In this document: positions 1 through 63,895 of the stretch, one piece after another
How positions within the stretch are numbered: the stretch's first letter is position 1
How the letters are laid out: each line of letters opens with the position of its first letter
Assembly (NCBI GenBank): GCA_964502815.1
Contig: CAZCXV010000003.1
Coordinates: forward strand, 4,694 to 68,693
Source of the DNA: an uncultured Gammaproteobacteria bacterium
GTDB lineage: Bacteria; Patescibacteriota; Microgenomatia; UBA8517
Length of the DNA stretch: 64,000 nucleotides
Direction of reading: 5' to 3'
Notes under the pieces: generated by a model
What the model saw: the letters and a program-made list of their open reading frames with translations, nothing else
Database searches by the model: none
Told to the model about the DNA's origin: nothing
Position numbers and translations under genes: made by a program

Positions 1-95
1 TGGCTAATAAAAGCGAGAAACGAGCAATCGAGGGTGATAACGCTATACAGCTCAACCTTTTTGAAACATTTAAGGAACGTAAACGACTAGAGGTA

Positions 96-756: not shown

Positions 757-757
757 T

Positions 758-1360: not shown

Positions 1361-1362
1361 AT

Positions 1363-2049: not shown

Positions 2050-2050
2050 T

Positions 2051-2587: not shown

Positions 2588-2596
2588 ATAACTCTT

Positions 2597-2977: not shown

Positions 2978-2978
2978 T

Positions 2979-5767: not shown

Positions 5768-5812
5768 CCAATCGCTTAACAGGCGAGTGCTCTACCGCTG
5801 AGCTATCGGGGA
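5738..5812 (-). tRNA. tRNA-Asn (anticodon GTT), CCA encoded
   Basis: I folded the cloverleaf manually. The acceptor stem is TCCCCGA/TCGGGGA and the D-stem GCTC/GAGC. The anticodon loop is CTGTTAA and the T-arm is ACAGG-TTCAAAT-CCTGT. Confidence 0.85.
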
Positions 5813-38683: not shown

Positions 38684-41182
38684 ATGGAAATCCTACAAAT
38701 TACCAAAACAAATAGGAAACTAGCCAAAGGAAAATTAAAAAATGGCAATGGCCACTTAGATCCTAAAAAGGTTAATTGGGACGGGCTTGACTATGAACAA
38801 ATGATTTCTTTAGTAGGTAAACTAAGCGGACCAACACCCGCTCTTCCAGGGGATTTGCCTAAATATGACTGGACACCTCAAGCCTTGCGAGTACTGGCTG
38901 AAAGATATTTTTTGAAAGATGAAGACGGCAATATTTTAGAAGATACGGCTCAAATGTGTTGGCGCGTAGCTTGGGAACTAGCCAGAGCAGAAGTTAAATA
39001 CGGCAAAACTAGGGAAGAAATAGTTGCCTACGCCAAAGATTATTACAATCTAATGATCAAAAGGTGGTTTTTGCCAAATTCTCCAACCCTAATGAATGCT
39101 GGCAAAGGAAATGGTTTGCAATATAGTGCTTGCTATGTTCTTCCGGTGGAAGACTCTCTGCCTGGAATTTTTGACGGCATTAAATATCAGGCCATTGTCC
39201 ACCAAAGCGGTGGCGGAACGGGGTTTTCTTTTTCTAGACTTCGACCAGCAGGCGCCCGGGTCAAGTCGACAAGAGGAGTGGCTTCGGGGCCAGTTTCTTT
39301 TATGCGTATCTACAATGAAGCCACCCAACAAATAAAACAAGGGGGAATGAGGCGGGGAGCAAACATGGGAATATTGCGGGTAGACCATCCGGATGTTTTG
39401 GAATTTATCCATGCCAAGGATGATGGCGCAAGCGTCACAAACTTTAATATTTCGGTGACAGTGACAGACAAATTTATGGAAGCTCTGGCAAAAGGTGAGG
39501 ATTATGAACTTATTGCTCCGCATACTGGTGAAGTAACAGGCAAACTTTCTGCAAAAATGGTTTGGGATGAAATTGCCAAAGGGGCCTGGAAGACGGGAGA
39601 TCCGGGAGTAATCTTCATTGATAGAATAAATCAAGGACCAGGAAACCCAATCAGAAAAGAAGGTTGGCTGGTTGAAAGCACTAATCCTTGTGGTGAGCAA
39701 GAATTATATCCATTTGATGCATGTAACTTAGGAAGTATCTTCTTAACGTATTACGTAAAAGATGGGAAAGTAGATTGGGACAAACTAAAAGAAACCATCC
39801 ATATAGCAGTAAGGTTTTTAGACTCCGTTATTGAAATGAATCCTTTCCCTCTGTCGCAAATTGCCGACACTGTTAAAAAAATTAGAAGGATAGGTTTAGG
39901 TGTTGGCGGCTGGGCAGATATGTTGGTACAAATGGGAATTCCATATGATTCCGAAGAGGCATTAACCTTGGCTGGAAAAATTATGAAGTTTATTAATCAA
40001 GAAGGACACAAAGCAAGTCAGGATTTGGCCCGCGAAAGGGGTCCTTTCCCAATGTATAAAGATAGCATCTACAAAAACACTCCCATGAGAAACTGTACAG
40101 TTACCACAATTGCCCCAACTGGTTCAATAGGAATATTGGCAGGAGCATCGGGAGGGGTAGAACCAAAGTTTGCCATTGCCTATCAGCACATTGTTAAATC
40201 TGAAAATAGAACACTTACCTTTGTCGATGAACTTTTCGAGAGCATGGCCAAAGAAAAGGGGATTTGGAATGAAGATTTGAAGAAAAAGCTTGCAGAACAT
40301 GGAACAGTCCATGATATTGCTGAAGTTCCAGAGAATATAAAGCGGGTCTGGGTGACCGCCCATGAAATCCATCCTGATTGGCATGTAAAGATGCAAGCAG
40401 CGTTTCAAAAATACACCGATAATTCTGTAAGTAAAACTATTAATATGTCAAATAGCGCGACAGTTGAAGACATTCAAAAAGCCTATATGTTGGCTTGGGA
40501 GACTGGTTGTGATGGAATCACTGTTTTTAGAGATGGCTGCAAAAATGAGCAAGTGTTAAATGTTGGTACTAAAAGTGAAGAGTTGTCTACAGCAAAGAAA
40601 AAAGAAGAGGAAAAACTTCAGATGCTCACTGAACCAGTAAAAGAAAGGCCAATGAGGGTAACGGGGGCAACCTACAGGGTAGATACGCCAGTAGGTATTG
40701 CTTTCATTACTGTTAATGAAGATGAAAATGGCCATCCTTTGGAACTATTCGTAAACGTAGGAAAAGCAGGAAGCGATGTGACTGCTATGGCTGAAGCCTT
40801 GGGAAGAACTATTTCTACTTCACTTAGATTTAGAGGAGGACTTTCTGCAAAGGATAGAATTGAAGAAATTGCCAGACAGCTTGCAGGTATTGGGGGAAGA
40901 AGATCGGTAGGTTTTGGCCCTAATAGAATTCTCTCTCTTCCAGATGCTGTTGCCTATGCGCTCTCGGTTCATTTTGGATTCTTAATCAATGGTTGGAACA
41001 AGCAGTCAAAAAACCAACAATTGGCAATTGATGGCGTAAGTGTTTCAACCGACAAGGTAGTTACCTCAAGCGTAGCTCCTGCAAAAAAATTAGGAGACAT
41101 TTGTCCAAAATGTGGTGAGGCAGCCTTTATTTTTGAAGAAGGTTGCAAAAAATGCTACTCCTGTGGACATAGTGAATGCTAA
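38684..41182 (+). CDS. nrdJ: Class II adenosylcobalamin-dependent ribonucleotide reductase with C-terminal zinc ribbon
   Basis: NSPTLMNAGK...SACYVL and NPCGEQEL motifs. The C-terminus is CPKCG...CKKCYSCGH. Confidence 0.9.
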   Translation: MEILQITKTNRKLAKGKLKNGNGHLDPKKVNWDGLDYEQMISLVGKLSGPTPALPGDLPKYDWTPQALRVLAERYFLKDEDGNILEDTAQMCWRVAWELARAEVKYGKTREEIVAYAKDYYNLMIKRWFLPNSPTLMNAGKGNGLQYSACYVLPVEDSLPGIFDGIKYQAIVHQSGGGTGFSFSRLRPAGARVKSTRGVASGPVSFMRIYNEATQQIKQGGMRRGANMGILRVDHPDVLEFIHAKDDGASVTNFNISVTVTDKFMEALAKGEDYELIAPHTGEVTGKLSAKMVWDEIAKGAWKTGDPGVIFIDRINQGPGNPIRKEGWLVESTNPCGEQELYPFDACNLGSIFLTYYVKDGKVDWDKLKETIHIAVRFLDSVIEMNPFPLSQIADTVKKIRRIGLGVGGWADMLVQMGIPYDSEEALTLAGKIMKFINQEGHKASQDLARERGPFPMYKDSIYKNTPMRNCTVTTIAPTGSIGILAGASGGVEPKFAIAYQHIVKSENRTLTFVDELFESMAKEKGIWNEDLKKKLAEHGTVHDIAEVPENIKRVWVTAHEIHPDWHVKMQAAFQKYTDNSVSKTINMSNSATVEDIQKAYMLAWETGCDGITVFRDGCKNEQVLNVGTKSEELSTAKKKEEEKLQMLTEPVKERPMRVTGATYRVDTPVGIAFITVNEDENGHPLELFVNVGKAGSDVTAMAEALGRTISTSLRFRGGLSAKDRIEEIARQLAGIGGRRSVGFGPNRILSLPDAVAYALSVHFGFLINGWNKQSKNQQLAIDGVSVSTDKVVTSSVAPAKKLGDICPKCGEAAFIFEEGCKKCYSCGHSEC

Positions 41183-42018
41183 CCTTTGATTAGTTTTTTA
41201 TCTTCAGGCTCTTTCAAATAGTTATGGCTGGTTGAAACTTTTTTGCCGCTTTTTACTTCGAGCTCTCGTCTAGCGTTTCCGGCAACATCTCCACCTTCTT
41301 TGGCTGCTTTTTTGTTTTCAACAAAACCTTGCACATCTTTGCCTTTGGCAATTTCAGTAGTTGAAGCTTCTCCAAGCATGGAAAAGATTAGTTCGAGTTC
41401 ATTCATGTGATCTCTCAAGTTTTGCCTTTTTAAACCTTTAAAACCTTTGTATTCACTTGGAGTCATGCCGAAAGTTGCATTTGATATCTCTGCAGTAAGG
41501 ATGGCGTATTCCTTCTCTCCTCCGACGTCTCTATTTTTCCATTCTCCAGTTAGTGTTTCTCTAACTTGTATTCCTCGTAATCTTTTGTCAATCCAAGAAT
41601 CAGAATAGCCTTTGGCTTTGTAGAGAGCCCACATTCTTTTTGATGCCAGTTCAGGATCTTCAATTTCCTGTACTCTTTCATAGCCTACTTTAGCCAGCCA
41701 TCTTTTAAATGGTTCTGCTTTTGGAGAGGGAATTGATTGGATTATTCTAAAGATGTTCTCTGTATTAGCACAATTTACTTTTTGAATTCCACCTGGAGTT
41801 AATATTGAAAGGGGGGTGGCAATTTGCCTCCACCCTTTAGAAAGTTGTTCATCTCGTCTACGCATATCCTTAATATAACCTTCAGGTTGTATTGAATCTG
41901 TAAGTGCTAAAACAACATCTGCAATTACAAACCACCATTCGTTGTTATGAATTATTTTTCTAATTTCTTTATCTCTAAAAATTGCTAATTTTGTCTGCAT
42001 TTCTAAATCTTCATTCAT
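41179..42018 (-). CDS. Bro-N / DinD-like family protein (paralog 2)
   Basis: FRIIQSIPSPKAEPFKRWLAKVGYERVQE aligns with the 11066..11905 protein. The 4-nt overlap with the nrdJ stop shows a tight insertion. Confidence 0.65.
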   Translation of the reverse strand: MNEDLEMQTKLAIFRDKEIRKIIHNNEWWFVIADVVLALTDSIQPEGYIKDMRRRDEQLSKGWRQIATPLSILTPGGIQKVNCANTENIFRIIQSIPSPKAEPFKRWLAKVGYERVQEIEDPELASKRMWALYKAKGYSDSWIDKRLRGIQVRETLTGEWKNRDVGGEKEYAILTAEISNATFGMTPSEYKGFKGLKRQNLRDHMNELELIFSMLGEASTTEIAKGKDVQGFVENKKAAKEGGDVAGNARRELEVKSGKKVSTSHNYLKEPEDKKLIKG

Positions 42019-43019: not shown

Positions 43020-45365
43020 ATGTATCAGGAAAGTACAGACGTTAATTTTTCAGCAATATTAATTGGCCTAATATTATTGGGTTTTTTGGTAGTTGCAATT
43101 GCCCTTTTGGGCTATGTTGCCTATATCTTTTATAAAAACAGAAAAAGGGAAGACCGGTCAATTGATTCAGTACTTCTACAGGTTGCAGTTCAGCGGTCTA
43201 ATGAAATAAAGATTGATGCCATGGAACAAATCTTTGCCGTTGTTTCTTCCCTGAAAAAAAGTGGTTGGAAACAAAAGTTTGATATCCAGCCAACAGTATC
43301 GTTTGAACTGGTGGCCCAGAAAGAAGACATTAGGTTTTTTGTCTGGATACCCAAAAAGTTTCAGGACCTGATTGAAAAAACAATTCACGGCGCTTATCCG
43401 GACGCCGAAATATTGGAAATTCCGGAATATAATATCTTTACCGAAGAAGGGAAAGTTGCCTACAAATCTCTGCAATTAAAGAAAGACAACTTCTATCCAA
43501 TCAGAGTTTACAAAGATATGCCGATTGATCCAATGAGCGCCATTACTTCAGCTTTGGCCAAAATGGGTGAGGGAGAAGCTGCTAGTATTCAATTTATTCT
43601 CTCTCCGACCCAAATTTCTTGGCAGAAAGCAGGTAAGGATTTTATTTCTTCGACTAAAAAGAGTGAATCGGATCCCGAAAAAGCCAAATTTTCAACTCCC
43701 GCGAAAACTTTAGAATCAGTTGAGCAAAAAATATCAAAACCCGGTTTTGAAGTTTCCATTAGAATGGTTGTAGTAGCAGGAAGTGAAGATGTTGCTAAAG
43801 CCCATTTAACCAATATCTCTGCCTCTTTTGAACAGTTTAATGGTGACTTAAACGGTTTTGGAGGAAGAACAGTTAAAAATAAAGGGGCTTTTATTGAAGA
43901 CTTTCTCTATAGGTATCAGCCAATGTTTAATTTCCAAAAAAATCACCCATCAGTTTTAAATATTGAAGAGTTGGCAACTGTTTTTCATTTTCCAAACAAA
44001 CAAATTTCCACCCCACACATTTTTTGGCTTAACGCCAAGAGTGCCCCTGCCCCGGCTGAAATCCCCAACGAAGGCCTATATTTGGGAATGAGTGACTTTA
44101 GGGGGATTCGAAGGCCAGTTTATATTACCGATGAAGATAGATTGAGGCATATGTATATCATTGGAAAAACAGGTGTTGGCAAAAGTGAACTTTTAACCGA
44201 CATGATGATGCAGGATATCAAAGCCGGCAAGGGAATTTGTTTTATCGATCCTCACGGCGATGCTGCCGAAAAACTCTTGGAACTGATTCCTCCCCAAAGA
44301 GCCGAAGATGTGATTTATTTTGATCCAGGAGACAGTGACAGGCCAATGGGAATAAATCTATTGGAAGCAAAAACTGAAGATCAAAAGCATTTTGTGGCAA
44401 CATCAATCATTAATCTGATGTATAAGCTTTTTGACCCTTATAAGACTGGCATTGTCGGTCCGCGTTTTGAGCATGGAGTTAGAAATGCAATTCTAACGGC
44501 TCTTGCAGTTCCTGGGAGTACTTTTATTGAAGTTATGAAACTACTGCAAAACCCTGGAGGGCCATATTTGCAAAGATATCTGGATGCTTTGGACGACCAG
44601 ATGGTTAGAGAATATTGGACAGAGCAGATTGCCCATACGTCAGAATTTCACAAGTCAGAAACGCTTGACTATACAGTTTCCAAGTTTGGCCGATTTGTGA
44701 CCAATAAAATGATTAGAAATATTATCGGCCAAACCCAATCGGCATTTAATTTTAGAGAGGTTATGGACAATCAAAAAATCTTAATTGTTAATTTGGCTAA
44801 AGGAAAATTGGGTGAGGAAAACTCCAACTTTCTAGGCCTAATATTAATTCCAAGAATCTTGATGGCAGCCCTTAGTAGGCAAGATACCCCAGAAAACGAA
44901 AGAAAAGATTTTTATTTATATGTTGATGAGTTCCAGAATTTTGCCACTCCAGATTTTGCCGTTATTCTTTCAGAAGCCAGAAAATATCATTTGGGCTTAA
45001 TTGTAGCCAATCAGTTTATAGGGCAAGTTGAAGAGGAAGTAAAAAATGCCATTTTTGGCAATGTGGGAACAAAAATGTCTTTTAGAATTGGCGTCTCTGA
45101 TGCAAGCTACATGGCCCATGAATTTGCCCCAACTTTTGCTGAGGATGATCTATTAAATATTGATAAATATCATGTTTATATTAATACCATTGTTAAAAAT
45201 GAACCCGTGCCATCTTTTTCGATGGATGTTACCAAAGATATGGAAGCTGAAAAAAAGCTTAGAAACCCTAGGGTGGGAGAAATAATTAAAGAAATGAGCC
45301 GGCTTAAATATGGCAAAGATGTCAGACTAGTGGACGCTGAAATCTCCAGAAGAAGTGGCTATTAA
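43020..45365 (+). CDS. Membrane-anchored FtsK/HerA/VirD4 (TraG/TraD)-superfamily P-loop ATPase
   Basis: N-terminal TM helix with KNRKRE on the inside. Walker A is IIGKTGVGKSE, with a Walker B-like FYLYVDEFQNF. ARKYHLGLIVANQFIGQ is an arginine-finger/sensor block typical of this superfamily. Confidence 0.55.
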   Translation: MYQESTDVNFSAILIGLILLGFLVVAIALLGYVAYIFYKNRKREDRSIDSVLLQVAVQRSNEIKIDAMEQIFAVVSSLKKSGWKQKFDIQPTVSFELVAQKEDIRFFVWIPKKFQDLIEKTIHGAYPDAEILEIPEYNIFTEEGKVAYKSLQLKKDNFYPIRVYKDMPIDPMSAITSALAKMGEGEAASIQFILSPTQISWQKAGKDFISSTKKSESDPEKAKFSTPAKTLESVEQKISKPGFEVSIRMVVVAGSEDVAKAHLTNISASFEQFNGDLNGFGGRTVKNKGAFIEDFLYRYQPMFNFQKNHPSVLNIEELATVFHFPNKQISTPHIFWLNAKSAPAPAEIPNEGLYLGMSDFRGIRRPVYITDEDRLRHMYIIGKTGVGKSELLTDMMMQDIKAGKGICFIDPHGDAAEKLLELIPPQRAEDVIYFDPGDSDRPMGINLLEAKTEDQKHFVATSIINLMYKLFDPYKTGIVGPRFEHGVRNAILTALAVPGSTFIEVMKLLQNPGGPYLQRYLDALDDQMVREYWTEQIAHTSEFHKSETLDYTVSKFGRFVTNKMIRNIIGQTQSAFNFREVMDNQKILIVNLAKGKLGEENSNFLGLILIPRILMAALSRQDTPENERKDFYLYVDEFQNFATPDFAVILSEARKYHLGLIVANQFIGQVEEEVKNAIFGNVGTKMSFRIGVSDASYMAHEFAPTFAEDDLLNIDKYHVYINTIVKNEPVPSFSMDVTKDMEAEKKLRNPRVGEIIKEMSRLKYGKDVRLVDAEISRRSGY

Positions 45366-48300
45366 AAATATGACAGAACAAACTGCCCCAAAGGAAGAAA
45401 CTGCATTTATTAGCGATAATTTAAATAACTTTAATCGGCTAGCACAAACTTATACGTCCTTGCGGGATGTTGAGAAGGTCGACGGAGATCAAGTAAATGA
45501 AGTGTTGAGTGGACATCGTCGCCTTAAATATTACTTAGAAGCTGCGGATTTAGTTGACGGTGAAGGCAATATAGGAAAGAAATTATTTTTACCAATCGGT
45601 CAAAGTAGACATTTAGATGATGTTTTATGGGAAATAAAACATCCTTTATTAGAAAGAATTGACAGAGAGCTATATATGTTTGATGAAGAGGAAACCTTTG
45701 TTAATTCTTACGAACAAGCACTTGAAGAATACAAAACAGTAAGAACAATTAGGGTATATATTGAAGAAAACGCCAGGGATTCAGAACAAAAACGCCAAAT
45801 TTTAGCAAGTTTAGATGTGGCCGAGCGGGTTACTCAACTTGCAACTGTTGAGAAACTCCTTAATTGTGCCGACAAAGCCTTTATGCTTGATGCTGTTGCG
45901 AATTCTGATGTGCCATTGGTTGACAGGGAACTTGATATGTCAAAATGGGATGATCTTACTCAAGAAGAGAAACATGCTGGTGGCCTTTTAGTAAATTTGT
46001 ATACCATTGCAACTCTCAAAGCCGGAGTCAATATTAGACAAGCTTATGAAAATGCAACCCATCAACTGAAACAAGATGAACAAAAAGCAGCTGGTGTATT
46101 GGAGGAAAAACCTTTGGGTGATTATGAATTATATAAAGATTCTCAAGAAATTTTACCGAGACACTTTCATCAAAGACACCATAGAGATGAAGATGAAGAG
46201 TTTGAACATGGGTATGTAAGAAAAATTGCACATGATTATGAGTTTAATCAACAAGCGGTAGATTATGAATTTAAACATATTGCAATGGCCATTAGTGAAG
46301 GATTAGTGTCTTTAGATCCAACTGTTGGTGAGGTACAAAGGTTATATGATTTAGTTTTGCCTTATCTGTTTAGCGAAAACAGTTGGTATATCTCTATAAA
46401 TGCCTTAAGTACAATGCGCGATCCACGAGCCCTCTTTGTACTTTTAGACCAATTGCAACAAAGCCAGGAGTTAATGGGCGGCGAAAAACATGCAGAAGCG
46501 ATCGTCAATATAGCGAATAATCCTTTGTCTCCCAAGATTATGGATCAATATCTACAAACAGCCTCCGATGAGCAAAAATTTGCAGTAGAAATGGCTAACA
46601 ATCCGTTAGTTAGACAAATAGTTATGAAAGATAATTCCTCATCCCCCAATAGACTTTGGAATAGAAATGTCAGAGTTTTACCTGAACTACTTTTAGGTTC
46701 ACCAAAAAGGTTGGCAAATTTGAAGTTTATAGAAATTTATATAGATTATGCAAAACAAAAAGGCATCTCAGTTGATAAAAATGAATACTCAGATATGTTG
46801 AATACGCTAAATATGTATTCTGGAGAAGCGGCAATTAAGTTGTTTACAGCTAACCTAGATGAAATAGTACCTCTTTTAGCAAAGAAAGCTCATGAAATTG
46901 GCTTTGCCGATTGGGAAAACAATATGCCTGAGTTGTATAAAGCAGTTGTTGGATATAAGGATGGCACCGGTTTTGTTCTTGAATTAGCCCTGGCAATTGG
47001 TATTAGTACTGAGGCAGTTTCTAAATTAGAAGCACTATATCTATCAAAAGATTTAAGAGGGGGTGAACACTCCAAAAAAGAAATACTAAATGGCATAATT
47101 GTTTTTTTAGGTAAAAATGGTTCAAGTGAAACACTCGAAACAATTGTCTCAAAAATAAGTGGAACTAAAGAAGACCCAAAAAGAGTGAGAAGAATATTTA
47201 GAATGTTAACAACCTTAAATGATCTAGGTAGACTTGACTTATCTCACAGTGAAATGTTTGACGGAGGTTCTTTGGATGAAATTGCCAACACTATTCAAAA
47301 TAAATTGGCTGAGGTTGTTAAAGAGAAACTAAATTTAACTACTGAAAGCATTTCTCCAGAAAGATGGGATAAACTCTTTAGTGAGGGGTCTTTGGACATG
47401 GTCATGTCCTTATATGCTCAATATACTGAAAAAAGCAAAGACTCTGCTGCCTCACTAATTCTTGAAATTGGTAAACATATTGTTATCGGGGATTTTGCCG
47501 AGTGGAGAAATACTAATCCATTTTCAAAAGAAATTTTAGAATATTATCTACCTAACCCCAATCAGCAAATTGCCTGGCTTACTCCAATAGAACCTATTAA
47601 AAGATTATTCAAATTAAGTAGGGAAGAACAAATATTGGGTGTGGTTGGAGAAATTAACAGAATTGCAAGTGAAGCTAAATCTCATGCTGAAAAAATATTA
47701 AATGTTGGAGAAAAACCACTGAACTTTTTTTCAGAAGAAAATTTAACTCAGCTTGAAAAAAGAAGACAAATTGTAGAAACCCAAATTAAAAATTTTGAGG
47801 AGGGTGGAGGAATTTCCCTTAAAAACTTAAGACGAACGAAGGATCAATTAGACGACCAGTTACGAATTATAAATGGAATTCAGTATTTGTTGAATTTGTC
47901 AATTGAAGACTTTAATCAAGGCGGGATAAGAGATACGCTTAAGAAAACAATTAGTACCTTGATTCGAATGCAAAATCTACAACAATCTGCTGCTGATCTT
48001 CAGCAGATTGAAAAAACAATCTTGCCTACATTAAATAAAATTGTTACCGAAGTAGAAGTTACTGGCCAAGATACTGATGACTATATGTCTCTTTTTAAAG
48101 CTGGTATGGAGCCCAGAGAGACATGTCAGAGTGTCCGAAATGGTTCACATAATTATTGTCTACCAACAACTATTGCCACGCCAGATATTAGATTGGATAA
48201 TTCTAGAATTGGTTCTGTTGTAGAAAACAGAGCCTTATCAAAATTGAAAAAGATGAGTACAGAGTTAGTCTCAGACCAAACTGTTATTATGTTGGAACCA

Positions 48301-48636
48301 CCTTATGGTTTGTCAGAAACTCATCCAGGATATGTGGTTACTTTAGAAATTGCAATTAAAAAAGCTGAAAACGTAGGAGTACCGTTAGTTATTGCTCAAC
48401 CCATTGATATGGCTACTGGTGCTGATCACGCTACAACTATCTCACTTCTTGATATGGTTGCAAGAAACAATGGTGCTCGCGTAACTAGAGTAGGGAATGT
48501 AAACTTACATGGTAAAAAAGGCATTGGAGAATATGAATATAGTGATACTTTGGGTGAAACCATTGACTTTGATGTGCCAGTGGCAATGGAGGAAGTATAT
48601 GTTGTCTATCCACAAAACGTAGCCATGGTATTCTAA
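45355..48636 (+). CDS. Large (1093 aa) cytoplasmic hypothetical protein, translationally coupled to the ATPase
   Basis: The start overlaps the ATPase stop by 11 nt. There is no TM helix and no catalytic motif. Internal repeats (ANNPLSPKIM / ANNPLVRQIVM) suggest an alpha-solenoid. Confidence 0.5.
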   Translation: MAIKNMTEQTAPKEETAFISDNLNNFNRLAQTYTSLRDVEKVDGDQVNEVLSGHRRLKYYLEAADLVDGEGNIGKKLFLPIGQSRHLDDVLWEIKHPLLERIDRELYMFDEEETFVNSYEQALEEYKTVRTIRVYIEENARDSEQKRQILASLDVAERVTQLATVEKLLNCADKAFMLDAVANSDVPLVDRELDMSKWDDLTQEEKHAGGLLVNLYTIATLKAGVNIRQAYENATHQLKQDEQKAAGVLEEKPLGDYELYKDSQEILPRHFHQRHHRDEDEEFEHGYVRKIAHDYEFNQQAVDYEFKHIAMAISEGLVSLDPTVGEVQRLYDLVLPYLFSENSWYISINALSTMRDPRALFVLLDQLQQSQELMGGEKHAEAIVNIANNPLSPKIMDQYLQTASDEQKFAVEMANNPLVRQIVMKDNSSSPNRLWNRNVRVLPELLLGSPKRLANLKFIEIYIDYAKQKGISVDKNEYSDMLNTLNMYSGEAAIKLFTANLDEIVPLLAKKAHEIGFADWENNMPELYKAVVGYKDGTGFVLELALAIGISTEAVSKLEALYLSKDLRGGEHSKKEILNGIIVFLGKNGSSETLETIVSKISGTKEDPKRVRRIFRMLTTLNDLGRLDLSHSEMFDGGSLDEIANTIQNKLAEVVKEKLNLTTESISPERWDKLFSEGSLDMVMSLYAQYTEKSKDSAASLILEIGKHIVIGDFAEWRNTNPFSKEILEYYLPNPNQQIAWLTPIEPIKRLFKLSREEQILGVVGEINRIASEAKSHAEKILNVGEKPLNFFSEENLTQLEKRRQIVETQIKNFEEGGGISLKNLRRTKDQLDDQLRIINGIQYLLNLSIEDFNQGGIRDTLKKTISTLIRMQNLQQSAADLQQIEKTILPTLNKIVTEVEVTGQDTDDYMSLFKAGMEPRETCQSVRNGSHNYCLPTTIATPDIRLDNSRIGSVVENRALSKLKKMSTELVSDQTVIMLEPPYGLSETHPGYVVTLEIAIKKAENVGVPLVIAQPIDMATGADHATTISLLDMVARNNGARVTRVGNVNLHGKKGIGEYEYSDTLGETIDFDVPVAMEEVYVVYPQNVAMVF

Positions 48637-48680
48637 ATTACTTTTTTTATCAAATCTCCAGAGAAAAACAAAAGTGAGTT

Positions 48681-48689
48681 TGCTATAAT
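48681..48689 (+). promoter_or_regulatory. Extended -10 (TGcTATAAT) upstream of the UAU tRNA
   Basis: TGnTATAAT lies 13 nt upstream of the tRNA 5' end. The same tttgctataat string occurs upstream of tRNA-Asn on the minus strand (5863..5873). Confidence 0.4.
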
Positions 48690-48702: not shown

Positions 48703-48774
48703 GGGCCTGTCGTTCAACGGTTAGGACGGGTCTCTTATAAAGACCAAACGATAGTTCGACTCTATCCAGGCCCA
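48703..48774 (+). tRNA. tRNA with anticodon UAU (nominally Ile, reading AUA)
   Basis: Manual cloverleaf: acceptor GGGCCTG/CAGGCCC, D-stem GTTC/GGAC, anticodon stem GGTCT/AGACC, loop CTTATAA, T-arm GATAG-TTCGACT-CTATC, 4-nt variable loop. Confidence 0.7.
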
Positions 48775-48808
48775 CAGATTTGAAAAAAAAGGATTGTCGG
48801 GGATGGCA

Positions 48809-48834
48809 CTCGCCGCGCCCGCCCCCTCGGCGAG
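48809..48834. other. GC-rich hairpin (7-bp CTCGCCG/CGGCGAG stem, 12-nt loop) in an otherwise AT-rich spacer
   Basis: A perfect inverted repeat. On the minus strand a T8 run follows about 19 nt later, so it is a possible terminator for the 48891..49772 gene, though not canonical. Confidence 0.35.
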
Positions 48835-48890
48835 CGCTGCAAAGCTCTGTTTATATACTCAAAAAAGCCGCCGATTATTTTACTAAAATT

Positions 48891-49772
48891 CTACTCCGAT
48901 ATTGTTAAGGTTTCAGATTCTACAATTGACTGTGCTCCGAGTGTAAATCTATCTCTTTTTTCAAGTGAATAATAAAATTTAATTTTGTAGTTGCCTGGAA
49001 CCATCTTAGAAAAAGTTTTTTCTGGTATTACATTTGTTATATTTTTATTCGGCAGTAGAGTCTCAACGGACGGTGCAAGCATACAGACTTTTTGATCACC
49101 CTGTAAAGGGGTTGAATTATTGTCTGGAATGATAAAAACCTGTACTAAACTAGATGCGCAAGTTTCTGGGAAATAGTAGACGTTATTTTGCGTGTTATTT
49201 GTAATTGTAAAAACAATTGGTTCACTCGCTCTATATGTGGTTTTTTCAAGCTGTATAGCAACTCCAGTTTTCTGTTTCTGGGCATCTGATGGTTGGATAT
49301 TCGTTTGGCTCGAAAATTGGCACTTGCCACTGGAGCAAATAGGTTTCTCTGATAGTTCGCATGGTTTACAAGCAACGTTTCCCCCACAAGATTTTAATTG
49401 TTGAGATGAATAGTCTTTCCCAAATTCGTATTGTTCCCAATTCTTTGTTCTAATTAATTCTTTGTTTATAGCTTTTGGACAGCTGCAGCAGGAAGTTGCC
49501 TGTATTCCTATGATGCAATCATTATCTTGGGAACAGGCTAATTCACTTGGTAACGACGGTAGCGTTGGTATTATATTTGAACTCGATCGGTTGCTTTGAT
49601 ATATAGAAAATGCATACAAACCCAAAATTCCAAAAAAAAGGATGGCCAAAATAAACGTAGATATCATCCAGTAATTTATCTTTGGTTTTACTGAAATTTG
49701 CATAAGTTGATCGACGGAATTTTGTCCGATTTGTTGAGTATTTTGATCCCCAACATTTACTTGATTTTCCAT
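48891..49772 (-). CDS. Membrane-anchored Cys-rich extracytoplasmic protein
   Basis: Single TM helix followed by multiple CxxC/CC pairs (SCCSCP, CKPC). Confidence 0.4.
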   Translation of the reverse strand: MENQVNVGDQNTQQIGQNSVDQLMQISVKPKINYWMISTFILAILFFGILGLYAFSIYQSNRSSSNIIPTLPSLPSELACSQDNDCIIGIQATSCCSCPKAINKELIRTKNWEQYEFGKDYSSQQLKSCGGNVACKPCELSEKPICSSGKCQFSSQTNIQPSDAQKQKTGVAIQLEKTTYRASEPIVFTITNNTQNNVYYFPETCASSLVQVFIIPDNNSTPLQGDQKVCMLAPSVETLLPNKNITNVIPEKTFSKMVPGNYKIKFYYSLEKRDRFTLGAQSIVESETLTISE

Positions 49773-49948: not shown

Positions 49949-50809
49949 CTAAAGCTCTTCTAACTTTTGTTTCTTTCCTGGGTCAGTAATACCTGCAAGT
50001 TCCAGATATCTTTCTGTAGTTGACAGTCTTTTGTGACCTACTGCTTGGCAAATTGTAACTAGGTCTACTCCTCTTTTAAGATTTTCCACAATAAATGTTG
50101 TCCTTAAGTCATTTACCGAATACTGGGGAATTTCTGCTTTTTGCATATACCTGTCTATTGCTGCCCTAATATTTCTGACTGCCAAGGGCTTGCCATTTTT
50201 ACTTACAAAGACATATACAGAATCTGTTTTCGGCCTTTGAGAAAGATAGTTATTTAAAGAAGTTTTTGCCGGGCCATTAAAGCCAATTTGTCTTTCTGGT
50301 TGGGTGGCATATTTTTCAATTATGATGGTGTCTGATTTCACATTTTCATTTTTTAGGCTGGCAACTTCTGATATTCTCATTCCAGTTTGCAAAATAAGCT
50401 CAACTATGGCGGCAATTCTGTTGTCTGTTTTAACTATGTCTCTTAAAGCTCGGTATTCAAGAGGAGAAAGAAACTTTGGCGAAGAGGAATCAATTTGAGG
50501 GTGTGAGACATCCTTAGAGGGGTCGAAGTTGCCCAATCCTTCAGACATCAACCACCTAAAAAAAGTTTTGACTGCGTTTAGTTTCCTGGAGGCTGACTTA
50601 GGAGTATATTTTTGCTGCAAGAGAGCGTCCCTAAAGGCCTCAATATCTTCGTGCCTGACATCGTCTGAAACAACCTTACTTCTTTTTTGTAAAAAAACGG
50701 TCAACTGTTCAAGATCTGCTCTGTAGGCTAGAATGGTTGAGGGAGACCTATTTTTGTCATTTAAGTCCTGGATAAATTTTGGCAGAAGTATCTTTAAAGG
50801 TTCTTGCAT
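49949..50809 (-). CDS. Tyrosine site-specific recombinase, XerC/XerD-like
   Basis: AYRADLEQLTVFL, RISEVASL, GHKRLSTTERYLEL, with catalytic R, H-x-x-R and Y. At 286 aa it is the size of Xer. Confidence 0.85.
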   Translation of the reverse strand: MQEPLKILLPKFIQDLNDKNRSPSTILAYRADLEQLTVFLQKRSKVVSDDVRHEDIEAFRDALLQQKYTPKSASRKLNAVKTFFRWLMSEGLGNFDPSKDVSHPQIDSSSPKFLSPLEYRALRDIVKTDNRIAAIVELILQTGMRISEVASLKNENVKSDTIIIEKYATQPERQIGFNGPAKTSLNNYLSQRPKTDSVYVFVSKNGKPLAVRNIRAAIDRYMQKAEIPQYSVNDLRTTFIVENLKRGVDLVTICQAVGHKRLSTTERYLELAGITDPGKKQKLEEL

Positions 50810-50871: not shown

Positions 50872-51261
50872 ATGAAGGAAAAACAAATAAAGAAAATAAG
50901 CCTGAATTTAGATCTTTTCTACCGTTTGGGGGCAGTAATTGTCGGAATAATGCTGTCAATAACCTTAACCAGAAATATTCTTATAATATCTACGGCAAAT
51001 AAAAAAATTGCCAAAGTAAAAGATGAAATTATCTCCCTAAAAGAAAAAAATGAAACCTTAAAGAAACAAATCCAAGAATCTCAAACAGATGAATTTACCG
51101 AGAGGCAAGCCAGAAATAGATTGGGACTTGTTAGAGAAGGGGAAGTAGTTGTAGTTTTGCCTGAAGAGGAAATCTTAAAAAAATTCTCACCAAATATAAA
51201 AGAACAGGAAGATCAACTCCCAGATCCAAATTGGAAAAAGTGGCTGAAGTTATTTATGTGA
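50872..51261 (+). CDS. FtsB/DivIC-like septum formation initiator
   Basis: N-terminal TM helix, a coiled coil (LKEKNETLKKQIQE), and RQARNRLGLVREGEVV. Confidence 0.55.
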   Translation: MKEKQIKKISLNLDLFYRLGAVIVGIMLSITLTRNILIISTANKKIAKVKDEIISLKEKNETLKKQIQESQTDEFTERQARNRLGLVREGEVVVVLPEEEILKKFSPNIKEQEDQLPDPNWKKWLKLFM

Positions 51262-51291
51262 TAACTTAAACTCCACTTATTTAGTTTTGTG

Positions 51292-51361
51292 TTGCGGGGC
51301 TGGGAGTTGAACCCAGCCTGAAAGATTATGAGCCTTTCGTGCAGCCGTACACTACCCCGCA
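51292..51361 (-). tRNA. tRNA anticodon CAU (elongator Met or Ile2-lysidine type; not initiator-like)
   Basis: Acceptor TGCGGGG/CCCCGCA (fully paired). Anticodon stem AAAGG/TCTTT with loop CTCATAA. T-arm CTGGG-TTCAACT-CCCAG. Confidence 0.7.
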
Positions 51362-51440
51362 TGTAGGAATTTGCAAAGCAAATTCATAGCATCTATCTTT
51401 CGTTTTTTGTAAATGAACAGCCTCATTATAACATAAGATC

Positions 51441-51478: not shown

Positions 51479-51550
51479 GCCAGGGTAGCTCAATGGTGGA
51501 GCAGCAGATTCATAAACTGCAGGTTAAGAGTTCGATCCTCTTCCCTGGTA
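51479..51550 (+). tRNA. tRNA anticodon CAU (Met; G1-U72 wobble at the acceptor end)
   Basis: Acceptor GCCAGGG/CCCTGGT, D-stem GCTC/GAGC, anticodon loop TTCATAA, T-arm AAGAG-TTCGATC-CTCTT. Confidence 0.7.
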
Positions 51551-51601
51551 CTTAAAGATTAATTCCTTTCTTTTTAGCTTCGAAAGACTTAGAATACAAA
51601 T

Positions 51602-52945: not shown

Positions 52946-55900
52946 ATGACCGATAATACAAAAAACGGCAATGGCCACAAAAATGGCAAAAACGGAAAAC
53001 CTACTAAAATTGTTAAAGTAGATTTTAATATTTGGAAAATAGCTCTAACAGTTTTAACCTTTCTTTTTATGGCGCCACTGTTTTTGTCTGTTTTTAAAGA
53101 CAAGTTAGATCAAAACAAAATTGAGCTTTCGCAGGCTTTAGCAGACATCAAAGAACAAAAAATTGAAAAGGTAGTTGTTGAAGAAAATAAGCTTCTTTTG
53201 ACTTATAAAGATGGCACAAATAAAGTTACATCTAAAGAAAACAGCATCTCGTTTCCAGAACTTATGGATAGATCTGGTATAAACTTAGCTGACGTTAAGT
53301 ATGACACTAATGACCAATCTCTCCTCAAGGCTTTTGCAGATTTAGTTAGTGTAGTTTTACCCATTGGTCTAATGGCAGTTCTTCTTTATTACTTTCTAAG
53401 GGCTCAGAATAAAGGTGCTTCAGATATTTTTTCCTTTGGCAGGAGCAAAGCCAAGTTGTTTGCTAAAGGTAAGCAAGATGTCAAGTTTGAAGACGTTGCA
53501 GGAATTGATGAAGCCAAAAGAGAACTAACCGAAATCGTTGATTTTTTGAAAAATCCTGCAAAGTACAAAAAAATTGGCGCCAGAACACCAAAAGGAGTTT
53601 TATTGGTTGGTCCCAGTGGAACTGGAAAGTGTATAACTGGAGAATCTATGGTGTGGACAAATAAGGGATTAATGGAGATCAAAGATATACCAAGATACTA
53701 TTATGTAGACAAAAATAATAATCGTACTTATGGCGCTTCGCTAGCAGGCTTTGATTTAGATAAGATCAAAAATAAAAATAGTTTTGCTTCTCATTGGTAT
53801 GATCTTGGTATTCAAAAAACAATAAAAATAAGATCTTCACAAGGTTACAACCTAGAAGGAACTCCCGAACATCCTGTTATATCTATGACTAATGATGGTG
53901 TTTTAAAATATAAAAAATTAAGCGAAGTTGAAAAAGGAGATTATTTAGCAATTCAATATGGAAGAAATATTTTTGGTGATTTAAATATGGTTGACCAAGA
54001 TACAGCCTATTTAATGGGACTTTTAACTGGTGATGGCAACATGAGTATTTCAAGTAGAGTTGGAATAACAAGTATTGACCCCGAAATAGTTAAATTTTTT
54101 AGAACTTATGTAAATAAACGATATCCTGATTCTGCAATTACCCCTAATGGTCAAAGTTATTTAATCTCAAACTGGGAATTTAAGAAATATTTGTACCAAT
54201 TGGGAATGAGCTATTTGCTTTCTTTTGATAAGGTTGTTCCTCCAACTATACTGCAGTCCCCAAAAAATATTCAAGTAGCTTTCTTACAAGGATTATTTGA
54301 CACCGATGCTTCAATTGAAAAAAGACATGGAGCCTTCGAATATGCCACGGTTAGCGAAAAGATGGCAAAGCAGGTGCAAATGATGATGCTTAATTTGGGA
54401 ATAATTGCTAGCTTGAATCAAAAAGGAAAGGTGGAAGATGGACATTACAGACCAGTTTATAGAATTACGATGACTGGAAGTGGACTTACTGCTTTTGCAA
54501 AAGAAGTTGGTTTCAAATTAACTAGAAAGAAAGAATTATTGTCTAAAAATGTTTCTAAAATGGGGCGTGTCAATACTAATATCGATGTAATTCCTGGTGT
54601 TGGTCGTCTAATTGAAGAGTCATGGAGGGAATTATCTAATAAAAAATTAAGTACAGAAAAATTGTCTAGAACAATAGATAAAGTTAGAAAAAGAAATAGG
54701 ATTTCTAGACAAACCCTCTCGGATTATTTGATTTATTCAAAATCTGTAAGTGACAATGTATTACATTATGAATTTATATATAGTCTGCTGAAATCTAATT
54801 TGTTCTTTTCTGAAGTTGTAGAAAAAACAAATAGTGAGAATCGTGTTTATGATTTCACAGTTCCAAAAACTCATTCCTTTATTTCAAATGGTTTTATTTC
54901 TCACAATACATTGCTTGCAAGAGCACTAGCCGGAGAAGCAGGTGTACCATTCTTTTCCATGGCAGGGAGTGAATTTATGGAGGTACTTGTAGGTGTGGGT
55001 GCATCCCGCGTGAGGGATTTATTTTCCCAAGCAAAAGCTTCGGCACCTTCGATTATTTTTATAGATGAGATTGATGCTATAGGTAGGCAGCGTGGTGGAA
55101 GAAATTTCATGGGAGGACATGACGAAAGAGAACAGACTTTAAACCAAATATTAGTTGAGCTGGATGGTTTTACGCCAAATGATCAAGTTCTAGTTCTTGC
55201 TAGCACTAACCGTGGAGATGTTTTGGATCCGGCACTACTTCGCCCTGGTAGATTTGATCGAAGAGTTATGCTTGATATGCCAGACAAAGAAGGTAGAGGA
55301 GAAATCTTAAAAATCCACGCTAGGGGCAAGAAATTTTCCGACAGTGTTAATTGGGGAAGAATTGCCGATAGGACAGTAGGTTTTTCTGGAGCTGATCTTG
55401 AAAATATGCTTAACGAAGCAGCAATTGCAGCAGCTAGACACGACAAAGAAGCAATTGAAATGAATGATATTGAAGAGGCGGCAACTAAAGTAAAACTAGG
55501 GCCAGCCAGAAAAAGACTCCAGAGCAAGGAAGACAGAACGATAACAGCAGCCCATGAAGCGGGTCATGCCATTGTCACCCATTTCCTTCCCAAGATGGAT
55601 CCGGTTCACAGAATCTCAATTGTTGCTAGGGGAATGAGTTTAGGACATACTTTAATTCCTCCTGCTGCAGACAGGTCTCATGAAACTAGGGAGAGATTTA
55701 TCCAACAGCTTGCAGCTATGCTTGGAGGAAGGGCTGCAGAAGAAGTGGTCTTTAATGAGATGACCTCTGGAGCCTCTAATGATATTGAATTGGCAACTAG
55801 GCTAGTCAGAGCAATGGTTGAAGAATATGGTATGAGTTCTCTGGGACCTATTAATTGGGGATTACAATCAAGCTATGGTGATTTTGGAAATGTTAACTAT

Positions 55901-56101
55901 ACGGAAAGTTCAAACATTTCCCAGAAAATGCAGGAAAAAGTTGATCTGGAAGTGGCCAAATTAATGGAAACTGCGCACCAAAAAGCTTTGACACTTGTCA
56001 AAAAGAACAGAAAACTTTTAGACAAAGTAACAGCTGCTTTATTAGAAAAAGAAACCATAGACCGAGACGAGTTTGAAAAAATTGTGGGGAAGAAAAAATA
56101 A
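52946..56101 (+). CDS. ftsH: ATP-dependent zinc metalloprotease FtsH, interrupted by an in-frame intein in the Walker A loop
   Basis: N-terminal TM helices. GPSGTGK| is followed by the intein, and the extein resumes |TLLARALAGEAGVPFF. The second region of homology, the HEAGH zinc site and the C-terminal helical domain are present. The extein is about 625 aa. Confidence 0.9.
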   Translation: MTDNTKNGNGHKNGKNGKPTKIVKVDFNIWKIALTVLTFLFMAPLFLSVFKDKLDQNKIELSQALADIKEQKIEKVVVEENKLLLTYKDGTNKVTSKENSISFPELMDRSGINLADVKYDTNDQSLLKAFADLVSVVLPIGLMAVLLYYFLRAQNKGASDIFSFGRSKAKLFAKGKQDVKFEDVAGIDEAKRELTEIVDFLKNPAKYKKIGARTPKGVLLVGPSGTGKCITGESMVWTNKGLMEIKDIPRYYYVDKNNNRTYGASLAGFDLDKIKNKNSFASHWYDLGIQKTIKIRSSQGYNLEGTPEHPVISMTNDGVLKYKKLSEVEKGDYLAIQYGRNIFGDLNMVDQDTAYLMGLLTGDGNMSISSRVGITSIDPEIVKFFRTYVNKRYPDSAITPNGQSYLISNWEFKKYLYQLGMSYLLSFDKVVPPTILQSPKNIQVAFLQGLFDTDASIEKRHGAFEYATVSEKMAKQVQMMMLNLGIIASLNQKGKVEDGHYRPVYRITMTGSGLTAFAKEVGFKLTRKKELLSKNVSKMGRVNTNIDVIPGVGRLIEESWRELSNKKLSTEKLSRTIDKVRKRNRISRQTLSDYLIYSKSVSDNVLHYEFIYSLLKSNLFFSEVVEKTNSENRVYDFTVPKTHSFISNGFISHNTLLARALAGEAGVPFFSMAGSEFMEVLVGVGASRVRDLFSQAKASAPSIIFIDEIDAIGRQRGGRNFMGGHDEREQTLNQILVELDGFTPNDQVLVLASTNRGDVLDPALLRPGRFDRRVMLDMPDKEGRGEILKIHARGKKFSDSVNWGRIADRTVGFSGADLENMLNEAAIAAARHDKEAIEMNDIEEAATKVKLGPARKRLQSKEDRTITAAHEAGHAIVTHFLPKMDPVHRISIVARGMSLGHTLIPPAADRSHETRERFIQQLAAMLGGRAAEEVVFNEMTSGASNDIELATRLVRAMVEEYGMSSLGPINWGLQSSYGDFGNVNYTESSNISQKMQEKVDLEVAKLMETAHQKALTLVKKNRKLLDKVTAALLEKETIDRDEFEKIVGKKK
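53630..54907 (+). other. Intein (426 aa) with LAGLIDADG homing-endonuclease domain
   Basis: Block A CITGESMVWT with Cys1. Block B GTPEHPV. The two LAGLIDADG motifs are YLMGLLTGDGNM and FLQGLFDTDAS. The terminal block is VYDFTV...FISHN followed by a +1 Thr. Confidence 0.8.
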
Positions 56102-63004: not shown

Positions 63005-63895
63005 TTGTTAATATGGTACACTCGTTGTATTATCTTTATTATGCAAAATAACTCAACTGAGCTTCAAGGAAGTTTGGAATTAATTAAGAAAACAATAGAA
63101 AGTTTGGAATATTGGTCTGCTAGAGACTTGATGTCTCATCTAGGCTATTCAACATGGGAAAGTTTTAGAACAGCTATTACTCGTGCACAGGAATCTTGCC
63201 AGCAAGCAGGACAATTAGTTGAGGACCATTTTCGTGACGTCACGAAAATGGTTGTATTAGGTTCAGGTAGTCAACGAGCAATAGAAGATTTACTTTTAAC
63301 TCGATATGCATGTTATTTGATTGCACAAAACGGTGATCCCCGTAAACCGCAGATTGCGGCTGCTCAAAATTATTTTGCAATCCAAACACGAAGACAGGAA
63401 ATATGGGAACAAAGAACTGTTGAAAACAAGCGCTTGGAAGAAAGAGATAAGCTACGAGATACAGAAAAGAAAATCGAAAGGACAGTCTATCAACGAGGAA
63501 TAACCCAAAGCATCGAGTTTGCAACTTTCAAAAATAGACATATAGAAGCTCTTTATGGTGGTATTAATACACCTGACCTAAAAAGAAAGCGGGGAATTCC
63601 AAAAGGTAGAGCTCTAGCCGATTTTGATACAGATGTAGAACTTAAAGCAAAGAATTTTGCTCTAGGGATGACAGATCATAACATTCGAACAAACAACTTG
63701 GTTGGAAGAGATAGACTTGAAAGAGAGGTTGTTGCCAACAGTTCTGCCACTAGAGATGCATTGCTGGCGCGTGGCATTATTCCAGAGAAATTGAAACCTG
63801 AGGAAGATGTCAAAAAGATAGAAAGACGCCGCGCAAAAGAGCAAAAGGCAATAGAGGCTGATCTAAATCAAGCCTTAAATAAACTCGCAAAATAA
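63005..63895 (+). CDS. dinD: DNA-damage-inducible protein D homolog
   Basis: YWSARDLMSHLGY and RYACYLIAQNGDPRKPQIAAAQNYFAIQTRRQE are near-identical to the blocks in E. coli DinD as I recall them. Confidence 0.85.
   Translation: MLIWYTRCIIFIMQNNSTELQGSLELIKKTIESLEYWSARDLMSHLGYSTWESFRTAITRAQESCQQAGQLVEDHFRDVTKMVVLGSGSQRAIEDLLLTRYACYLIAQNGDPRKPQIAAAQNYFAIQTRRQEIWEQRTVENKRLEERDKLRDTEKKIERTVYQRGITQSIEFATFKNRHIEALYGGINTPDLKRKRGIPKGRALADFDTDVELKAKNFALGMTDHNIRTNNLVGRDRLEREVVANSSATRDALLARGIIPEKLKPEEDVKKIERRRAKEQKAIEADLNQALNKLAK

Follow-up and report, generated by a model that had tools for sequence, protein, structure and literature searches.

A tRNA gene with the anticodon UAU lies in a stretch of 64,000 nt that we analysed as a whole (the window; positions 4,694 to 68,693 of contig CAZCXV010000003.1, assembly GCA_964502815.1, deposited as an uncultured Gammaproteobacteria bacterium). 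Our data indicate that this gene encodes a functional tRNA-Ile(UAU), and that this tRNA is probably the only decoder of AUA in a Levybacteria-like lineage of the candidate phyla radiation (CPR) that would have lost the pathway of TilS and tRNA-Ile2(CAU), in which a lysidine-modified CAU tRNA reads AUA. An earlier note, made from the sequence alone, had described a UAU tRNA with a clean cloverleaf and the loop CTTATAA, an adjoining extended −10 promoter and two CAU tRNAs about 2.6 kb downstream, and had regarded the gene as a rare one that implies an alternative solution for AUA decoding. The tRNA, its fold and anticodon, the promoter and the two CAU tRNAs were all confirmed (Table 1).

ARAGORN predicted four tRNA genes in the window, one of them tRNA-Ile(tat) at 48703-48775 on the plus strand, and the Rfam model RF00005 was matched over its full length at 48703-48774 with 61.4 bits (gathering score 29, E 7e-11); the gene was thus neither below threshold nor called in another register. 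The cloverleaf is its minimum free energy structure, with −28.6 kcal/mol and a share of 77% of the ensemble, and none of 200 shuffled sequences was as stable (z = −4.37). Parsed by hand, the tRNA has the acceptor stem GGGCCUG/CAGGCCC followed by U8 and C9, the D arm GUUC-AACGGUUA-GGAC followed by G26, the anticodon stem GGUCU/AGACC enclosing the loop C32-U33-U34-A35-U36-A37-A38 (CTTATAA at 48734-48740), a variable loop of 4 nt, and the T arm GAUAG-UUCGACU-CUAUC. The sequence shows the tRNA hallmarks U8 and U33, a GG in the D loop and TTCGA in the T loop. The gene is a genuine, functional, single-copy tRNA gene, and its anticodon register is unambiguous: all 44 distinct orthologues have a 7 nt loop, which reads CTTATAA in 33, CTTATAC in 10 and CTTATAT in one of them.

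These orthologues were collected from genomes and metagenomes. An alignment of the neighbouring VirD4/TraG-like ATPase was scanned against metagenomes and led to 80 further loci with 38-74% identity, and in nine related genomes 1.4-3.5 kb separate tRNA(UAU) from two divergently oriented CAU tRNAs. Altogether 47 orthologous tRNA(UAU) genes were obtained, with a mean pairwise identity of 0.66 and a minimum of 0.43 among the 44 distinct sequences. Compensatory changes keep all four stems, with several pair types at nearly every pair and non-standard pairs in only 9 of 924 stem cells. A73 is invariant, and the anticodon CAT was never found at the syntenic site among the orthologues. As judged from this pattern of substitutions, tRNA(UAU) is under strong purifying selection as a working gene.

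The position of the gene is conserved as well. The order in the relatives is ribonucleotide reductase (RNR), cobalamin adenosyltransferase (CobAT), an open reading frame (ORF) of 115 aa, the VirD4-like gene, a variable interval, tRNA(UAU), Xer, DivIC, the tRNA-fMet/tRNA-Met pair, TrpRS, FtsH and a 5′-3′ exonuclease. In Levybacteria the VirD4-like ATPase is 59-71% identical to that of the window, with tRNA(UAU) directly downstream. Of the metagenome loci, 40 contain a tRNA on the downstream side of the VirD4-like gene, and in 37 of them tRNA(UAU) comes first. At VirD4 identities of 60% or more, 16 of the 17 loci with sufficient flanking sequence contain the tRNA; the share is 9 of 15 for identities of 52-59% and 2 of 13 for 38-51%. 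Xer was found at the corresponding place in 12 of the 36 loci examined first and in 29 of the 80 metagenome loci. From these comparisons tRNA(UAU) appears to be a clade-wide syntenic feature of a Levybacteria-like CPR lineage. The rarity of UAU tRNA-Ile genes asserted in the earlier note therefore holds for cultured bacteria, but not for this lineage, where the gene is the rule.

The extended −10 element upstream of tRNA(UAU) was not listed by a two-hexamer promoter scan, because its −35 region is poor. The pattern TGNTATAAT occurs at four sites in 64 kb, which is not above the 3.4 expected by chance, and three of these four sites directly precede a tRNA gene, for Asn, Ile-UAU or fMet. In 29 of the 47 relatives the tRNA has a TAnWAT hexamer that ends 8-20 nt before its 5′ end, compared to 4.6% of random positions in the same loci, and 19 of these 29 hexamers carry the TG extension. 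tRNA(UAU) is an independent monocistronic unit with a short leader and its own promoter, which is conserved in relatives. A terminator scan and folding revealed no canonical intrinsic terminator 3′ of the gene. The G+C-rich patch that follows the tRNA is among only four stretches of 50 nt with at least 68% G+C in the 64 kb, has no second copy and stands out from a genome of 37% G+C. Its fold is not better than that of shuffled sequences; it may act as a barrier in transcription or processing.

Several further features were observed around the tRNA. An inverted repeat of 15 nt (48643-48657 and 48776-48790; 14 of 15 positions complementary, shuffle maximum 9) brackets exactly the cassette of promoter and tRNA. 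The orientation of tRNA(UAU) relative to its fixed neighbours flips among relatives, being plus in locus L018 and minus in L025 with an identical tRNA sequence. Flanking inverted repeats as a general mechanism of inversion were considered and rejected, since they are significant only in the window (14/15) and not in the relatives. Partial 5′-half copies of the tRNA lie not more than 60 nt upstream of the intact gene in three relatives; those in L069 and L090 end in the anticodon loop, and that in L022 is split by a small hairpin insert. These copies may be recombination scars at the tRNA(UAU) site. The interval from the VirD4-like gene to Xer is a variable insertion spot that measures 9 bp to 3.3 kb across genomes. 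In the window it holds the 1093-aa ORF of Table 1, which had no tblastn match in 116 related loci and is specific to this genome and outside the conserved unit. The interval also holds a 293-aa ORF (48891-49772, minus strand) without a family match and with one weak match in these 116 loci. In L014 (2464-2549, minus strand) and L029 (1659-1744, minus strand) a class II tRNA with the anticodon ACU is found beside Xer, where other loci have tRNA-Ile(UAU). It is a tRNA-Ser with A34 instead of the usual anticodon GCU, and with G73; apart from tRNA-Arg(ACG), bacterial tRNAs rarely have A34.

The flanking tyrosine recombinase and the homologue of a type IV secretion system coupling protein raise the question of whether tRNA(UAU) is a pseudo-tRNA, the remnant of an integration site or the cargo of a mobile element. 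The changing orientation, the partial copies in three relatives and the genome-specific ORFs inserted on both sides of the tRNA in the window would fit such an origin. The full-length, high-scoring cloverleaf, the purifying selection with its compensatory changes and the conserved promoter speak against it, the window contains neither partial copies of the tRNA nor att-like repeats, and the region 44-54 kb has no similarity to phages. Moreover, RNR, CobAT, the VirD4-like gene, Xer, DivIC, TrpRS and FtsH form a stable core order in distant relatives. Because the gene order holds over the whole range of identity, Xer and the VirD4-like gene are neighbours in the core genome and not parts of an element that carries the tRNA. 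We therefore consider a pseudogene or mobile origin extremely improbable.

According to Silva et al. 2006 (PMC1635315), tRNA-Met and tRNA-fMet have C3-G70, G3 or A3 or else C70 or U70 marks tRNA-Ile, and tRNA-Ile often has C4-G69 and C5-G68. tRNA(UAU) of the window shows the Ile-type features A73, A37, A38, G3-C70, C4-G69 and C5-G68. Over the 44 distinct orthologues the pair 3-70 is G-C in 35, A-U in five, U-A in four and never C-G, and C4-G69 is present in 27. We also compared 57 structural positions outside the anticodon with the annotated tRNAs ileX, ileV, metT and metZ of E. coli K-12. The window tRNA matches ileV at 35, ileX at 33, metT at 29 and metZ at 24 positions, and for 40 of the 47 family members the best match is an E. 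coli tRNA-Ile. These sequence features make a strong case for isoleucine identity. The case is not complete, because two identity pairs of the E. coli isoleucyl-tRNA synthetase (IleRS) are not reproduced in the window copy, which has U12.G23 (U12-A23 in E. coli) and U29-A41 (C29-G41 in E. coli).

The two CAU tRNAs 2.5-2.8 kb downstream are relevant here, since one of them might be a TilS-dependent tRNA-Ile2, in which case the UAU gene would not be needed for reading AUA. Bacterial initiator tRNAs are marked by the lack of a strong 1-72 pair (C1xA72), by the three G-C pairs 29-41, 30-40 and 31-39, and by A11-U24. The shorter of the two CAU tRNAs has the acceptor stem UGCGGGG/CCCCGCA-A, which is that of E. 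coli metZ except for U1 and its weak pair U1-A72. In 9 of the 15 distinct forms the stem is CGCGGGG with C1xA72, as in metZ, and metZ is also the best match of this shorter CAU tRNA (39 of 57 positions). Its anticodon stem has A29-U41, G30-C40 and G31.U39 and not three G-C pairs, and its D stem has U11-A24. On the basis of the acceptor stem, the similarity to metZ and the pairing with an elongator tRNA-Met, we assign it as an atypical initiator. The initiator of this lineage has a shortened D loop, with a tRNA length of 70-71 nt. C1xA72 is present in most relatives, and U1-A72 in the window and in L014, L029, L044, L046, L077 and L110; the more distant relative L105 has a more canonical initiator tRNA.

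The longer CAU tRNA has the acceptor pairs C3-G70, A4-U69 and G5-C68, which are not the discriminators of the Ile2 type. Among its 26 distinct orthologues, C3-G70 is present in 24, U3-A70 in two and G3-C70 in none, and G3/A3-C70/U70, C4-G69 and C5-G68 never occur. It is only marginally nearer to metT (31 of 57 positions) than to ileX (28 of 57), and this small margin, together with the location of the pair, is what would favour a tRNA-Ile2 at this place. If it were tRNA-Ile2, however, the cluster would be without an elongator tRNA-Met, and its neighbour is set apart by the acceptor stem of an initiator. A nearby tRNA-Ile2 is thus very unlikely, and from its acceptor pairs the longer CAU tRNA is classified as an elongator tRNA-Met. 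None of 41 distinct CAU tRNAs of related loci, nor the two in the window, is of the Ile2 type; all are of the initiator or Met type. Comparison of identity elements, which the earlier note had proposed for the CAU pair, hence gave one initiator tRNA-fMet and one elongator tRNA-Met, which with tRNA-Ile(UAU) bring the three decoders of the AUR half-box together in one cluster. The elongator has a G1.U72 wobble pair, and its anticodon stem is closed by an A31.A39 mismatch, which is A.C in many relatives; both features recur in many of the orthologues. A division of the CAU tRNAs into a family starting with GCCAGGG and a family starting with GGCGGCG, as tRNA-Met and tRNA-Ile2, was also considered. 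It was rejected since both have C3-G70, occupy the same position in different genomes and are linked by chimeric intermediates in L024 and L061.

Counting of codons, as suggested in the earlier note, showed that AUA is common. It accounts for 408 of the 19,339 codons in 55 window ORFs (21.1 per 1000; 27% of the isoleucine codons), occurs in all 55 of them, and exceeds both AUC (12.4 per 1000) and AUG (17.9 per 1000). In the classification of PMC12514573 this counts as high. The meaning of the codon was examined in seven conserved proteins by recording the homologue residues aligned to AUA positions, excluding residues that are themselves encoded by ATA. The aligned residues are Ile in 36%, Leu in 18%, Val in 17% and Met in 6%. 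Positions with AUU give the same profile (Ile 41%, Met 7%), whereas those with AUG differ (Met 39%). As judged from these alignments, AUA is isoleucine in this organism, and every gene depends on a tRNA competent to read it.

A search for tilS covered the window, about 9 kb of additional upstream flank and 122 related loci (1.13 Mb). None of these contained an SGGxDS-type motif or gave a match to E. coli TilS by tblastn or phmmer, and no window ORF has a TilS or PP-loop domain. In other bacteria tilS is often located upstream of ftsH (tilS-hpt-ftsH operons), and the TilS-negative related loci include this region. A PP-loop-like ORF with the motif GGGKDS near the tRNA pair of some relatives was examined as a TilS analogue and rejected, being a MurL-type UDP-MurNAc-L-Ala-L-Glu epimerase (NF041275, 1e-105). 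The epimerase gene lies beside or near the fMet/Met pair in L012 (2441-3688), L017 (2837-4051), L032 (827-2188) and L026 (3-890), has no Pfam hit and is absent from the window. A gene for IleRS was found neither in the window nor in the related loci, where a KMSKS scan gave only TrpRS, and genes for modification of U34 (MnmE/G/A, Cmo) are missing within the window.

TilS and a tRNA-Ile2(CAU) might nevertheless be encoded elsewhere in the genome, with the UAU tRNA as an extra isoacceptor for an abundant codon, as has been proposed for Lactobacillus casei/plantarum, Cyanothece and Ferrimonas. Such redundancy would agree with the frequent AUA in the window ORFs, and the sequence in view corresponds to under 10% of a typical CPR genome. 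Documented co-occurrence of tilS and tRNA-Ile(TAT) is sporadic, however, whereas here one fixed syntenic site is kept across sequences that are only 43-66% identical. U34 never reverts to C34 at this site, although C34 should be tolerated in the presence of TilS, and the 26 distinct CAU tRNAs other than initiators that were collected from about 120 loci include no Ile2-like one. Together with the negative search for TilS in 1.13 Mb, this makes a redundant decoder possible but rather unlikely. The syntenic UAU gene over deep divergence, the lack of C34 at the site and the lack of an Ile2-like CAU tRNA are the reasons why we regard tilS as probably lost in this lineage. A further reason is that the well-studied clade-wide UAU cases (Bifidobacterium, Neorickettsia) lack tilS, the cases of co-occurrence being sporadic.

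Several points weigh against tRNA-Ile(UAU) as the only AUA decoder, in addition to the two unmatched identity pairs. tilS is present in about 98% of annotated bacterial genomes (PMC12514573), and some bacteria carry tilS and tRNA-Ile(TAT) together (PMC3575796). Our view of the genome spans only about 73 kb, without genes for IleRS, rRNA or U34 modification. IleRS of the E. coli type charges UAU tRNAs poorly, and the UAU anticodon also reads AUG on E. coli ribosomes (PMC3575796). Due to this poor charging and reading of AUG, lineage-specific adaptations would be required, and none were observed. The earlier proposal of alternative AUA decoding is supported by the UAU tRNA, by the frequency and meaning of AUA and by the nature of the CAU pair, neither of which is tRNA-Ile2. 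Independence from TilS we infer with good support, the search for tilS having been negative in the window, its flank and the related loci.

According to our model, tRNA(UAU) would be transcribed alone from the extended −10 promoter with a leader of about 5-7 nt and would be matured by RNase P and by 3′ trimming. CCA would then be added post-transcriptionally, because it is not encoded. A37 would carry N6-threonylcarbamoyladenosine (t6A), as in tRNAs that read ANN codons, and IleRS would charge the tRNA with isoleucine. On the ribosome AUA would be read by Watson-Crick pairing of U34 with A, with U34 probably unmodified or minimally modified. Misreading of AUG may be avoided by competition with tRNA-Met, by adaptation of the ribosome or of IleRS, or by a combination of these.

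Table 1. Position and strand of tRNA(UAU), of the neighbouring CAU tRNAs and of associated elements in the window
Feature	Position	Strand	Characteristics and evidence
VirD4/TraG-like coupling ATPase, 781 aa	43020-45365	+	Pfam TrwB_AAD_bind, DUF87, TraG-D_C; conserved upstream neighbour
1093-aa ORF	45355-48636	+	between VirD4-like gene and tRNA(UAU); no Pfam/NCBIfam match
Extended −10 element TGCTATAAT	48681-48689	+	ends 13 nt before the 5′ end of tRNA(UAU); weak −35; sequence, pattern search, relatives
tRNA-Ile(UAU) gene	48703-48774	+	anticodon TAT at 48736-48738; A73 at 48774; CCA not encoded; ARAGORN, Rfam, minimum free energy cloverleaf, 47 orthologues
G+C-rich patch (72%)	48791-48850	+	single copy; hairpin CTCGCCG-N12-CGGCGAG; 16-75 nt 3′ of tRNA(UAU), before the stop of the convergent 293-aa ORF
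Xer-type tyrosine recombinase	49949-50809	-	Pfam Phage_integrase and SAM-like N domain; conserved downstream neighbour
DivIC/FtsB-like septum protein	50872-51261	+	Pfam DivIC 5e-17; between Xer and the fMet/Met tRNA pair; syntenic in relatives
Initiator tRNA-fMet(CAU), atypical	51291-51361	-	ARAGORN; Rfam 49.2 bits; metZ-like acceptor stem
Extended −10 element TGTTATAAT of initiator tRNA	51425-51433	-	TTCTCA 17 nt upstream; promoter scan 10 of 12 with TG; pattern search
Elongator tRNA-Met(CAU)	51479-51551	+	ARAGORN; Rfam 62.8 bits; C3-G70, A73

The window as a whole is a piece of the chromosome of a small-genome, Levybacteria-like CPR bacterium of the Microgenomates. Its G+C content is 35-39% throughout, and it encodes enzymes of glycolysis and of the non-oxidative pentose-phosphate pathway, class I aldolase, two PBP1s, FtsH, TrpRS, DivIC, Fpg, RecF, NrdR, a B12-type ribonucleotide reductase and cobalamin adenosyltransferase. 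Among 185,579 species-representative genomes the nearest TrpRS genes are all from Levybacteria (Candidatus Levyibacteriota, Microgenomates group), with a best identity of 73%, and the window proteins have copies in groundwater metagenomes. A phage origin was rejected, since megablast of the region 44-54 kb against phage genomes gave no match and the gene content is that of a CPR chromosome. Many public metagenome-assembled genomes titled "uncultured Gammaproteobacteria" or "uncultured Pseudomonadales" (among L002-L034) have the gene order and tRNA set of Levybacteria, and these titles appear to be mislabelled.

Other loci of the window were noted in passing. The FtsH gene (52946-56101, plus strand) is split by an intein of about 424 aa with a LAGLIDADG homing endonuclease at residues ~231-654, in the AAA domain, and FtsH of the related loci inspected is uninterrupted at this point. 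A large serine recombinase gene (4295-5767) extends with its 3′ end into a tRNA-Asn(GUU) gene (5738-5812, minus strand). The recombinase gene follows genes for five zinc-ribbon membrane proteins (758-4298), the last of which also has a trypsin-like protease domain, and it contains the point at which a metagenome assembly made independently breaks off. Within positions 1-5812 there is thus probably an element integrated at tRNA-Asn. Three paralogous BRO-N proteins of 279, 279 and 296 aa are encoded at 11066-11905 (minus), 41179-42018 (minus) and 63005-63895 (plus), the first two being 44% identical.

Taken alone, tRNA(UAU) is an ordinary, well-behaved tRNA of a described type, since natural tRNA-Ile(UAU) is already known; what is added here is its clade-wide syntenic occurrence in a CPR lineage. 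Going beyond the window, we lean slightly towards the view that Levybacteria and neighbouring Microgenomates have lost TilS and tRNA-Ile2(CAU) and read AUA, about 2% of their codons, by a tRNA-Ile(UAU) clustered with a remodelled initiator and an elongator with a mismatch at 31-39. TilS is regarded as essential and specific to bacteria. If the lineage has indeed dispensed with it, the exception, so far a handful of genera, would come to include a large radiation of uncultivated bacteria. No other bacterial group known to live without lysidine would be nearly as large, and one would expect co-evolved changes of IleRS and/or of the decoding centre across the AUN box. Such a lineage could account for at least part of the hundreds of tDNA-Ile(TAT) sequences from metagenomes that are still unassigned, and its dozens of natural variants would help to study how UAU is accepted and AUG rejected by IleRS and the ribosome. 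Annotation pipelines should expect Ile(TAT) in such genomes and not flag a missing Ile2. In the literature that we searched, neither tilS nor lysidine nor the decoding of AUA is linked to CPR, Patescibacteria or Microgenomates, which is not proof of novelty.

In eukaryotes tRNA-Ile(UAU) carries pseudouridine at positions 34 and 36. It depends on pseudouridylation guided by an intron, and unlike it the window gene has no intron. tRNA-Ile(UAU), also named Ile3, is known from Mycoplasma mobile, M. haemofelis, M. suis, Bifidobacterium, Neorickettsia and some tilS-positive bacteria as well as from Nanoarchaeum and Korarchaeum, and bacteria without tilS carry this tRNA instead (PMC3575796; PMC8450103). 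Taniguchi et al. 2013 (PMC3575796) listed 371 unassigned tDNA-Ile(TAT) sequences in metagenomes, and a survey with tRNAscan-SE 2.0 (PMC8450103) found tRNA-Ile(UAU) in 17 bacterial genomes. The organism of the window resembles M. mobile (PMC3575796) in having a TAT tRNA-Ile that would read AUA directly, an AT-rich reduced genome with frequent AUA, A37 as the site of t6A, and A73. In M. mobile U34 is unmodified, IleRS has Arg865 where the E. coli enzyme has Trp905, and AUG is rejected by its own ribosome but not by the E. coli ribosome (PMC3575796). There the state of U34, the change in IleRS, the rejection of AUG and the loss of tilS were demonstrated experimentally. Furthermore, M. mobile is a single species in a tilS-positive genus, whereas the gene described here is fixed at a conserved locus across a deep CPR clade.

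The best analogues of a lineage-wide solution are Bifidobacterium and Neorickettsia (PMC3575796), in which tRNA-Ile2(CAU) is replaced by tRNA-Ile(UAU) throughout a genus or clade. These belong to unrelated lineages, the Actinobacteria and the Alphaproteobacteria, and they have IleRS of the eukaryotic/archaeal type and no tilS, the loss of which is probable in the present lineage. Lactobacillus casei and L. plantarum, Cyanothece PCC 7424 and Ferrimonas balearica (PMC3575796) likewise have a genomic tRNA-Ile(TAT), but together with tilS; in such taxa its occurrence is sporadic by strain or species, whereas here it is syntenic over 44 distinct sequences with invariant U34. In Bacillus subtilis a tRNA-Ile with UAU sustains AUA decoding without TilS in a suppressor of a tilS deletion (Fabret 2011; Kohrer 2014, PMC3919564), as we propose for the window tRNA. 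That suppressor arose in the laboratory by a change of G34 to U in a copy of tRNA-Ile1, whereas the gene described here is natural and fixed, with a promoter and locus of its own. What we propose also resembles the archaea Nanoarchaeum equitans and Korarchaeum cryptofilum (cited in PMC8450103), in which an ultra-small or reduced genome uses UAU for AUA and dispenses with the pathway for modification of C34; they belong to another domain, in which the missing enzyme is TiaS, and in bacteria it is TilS.

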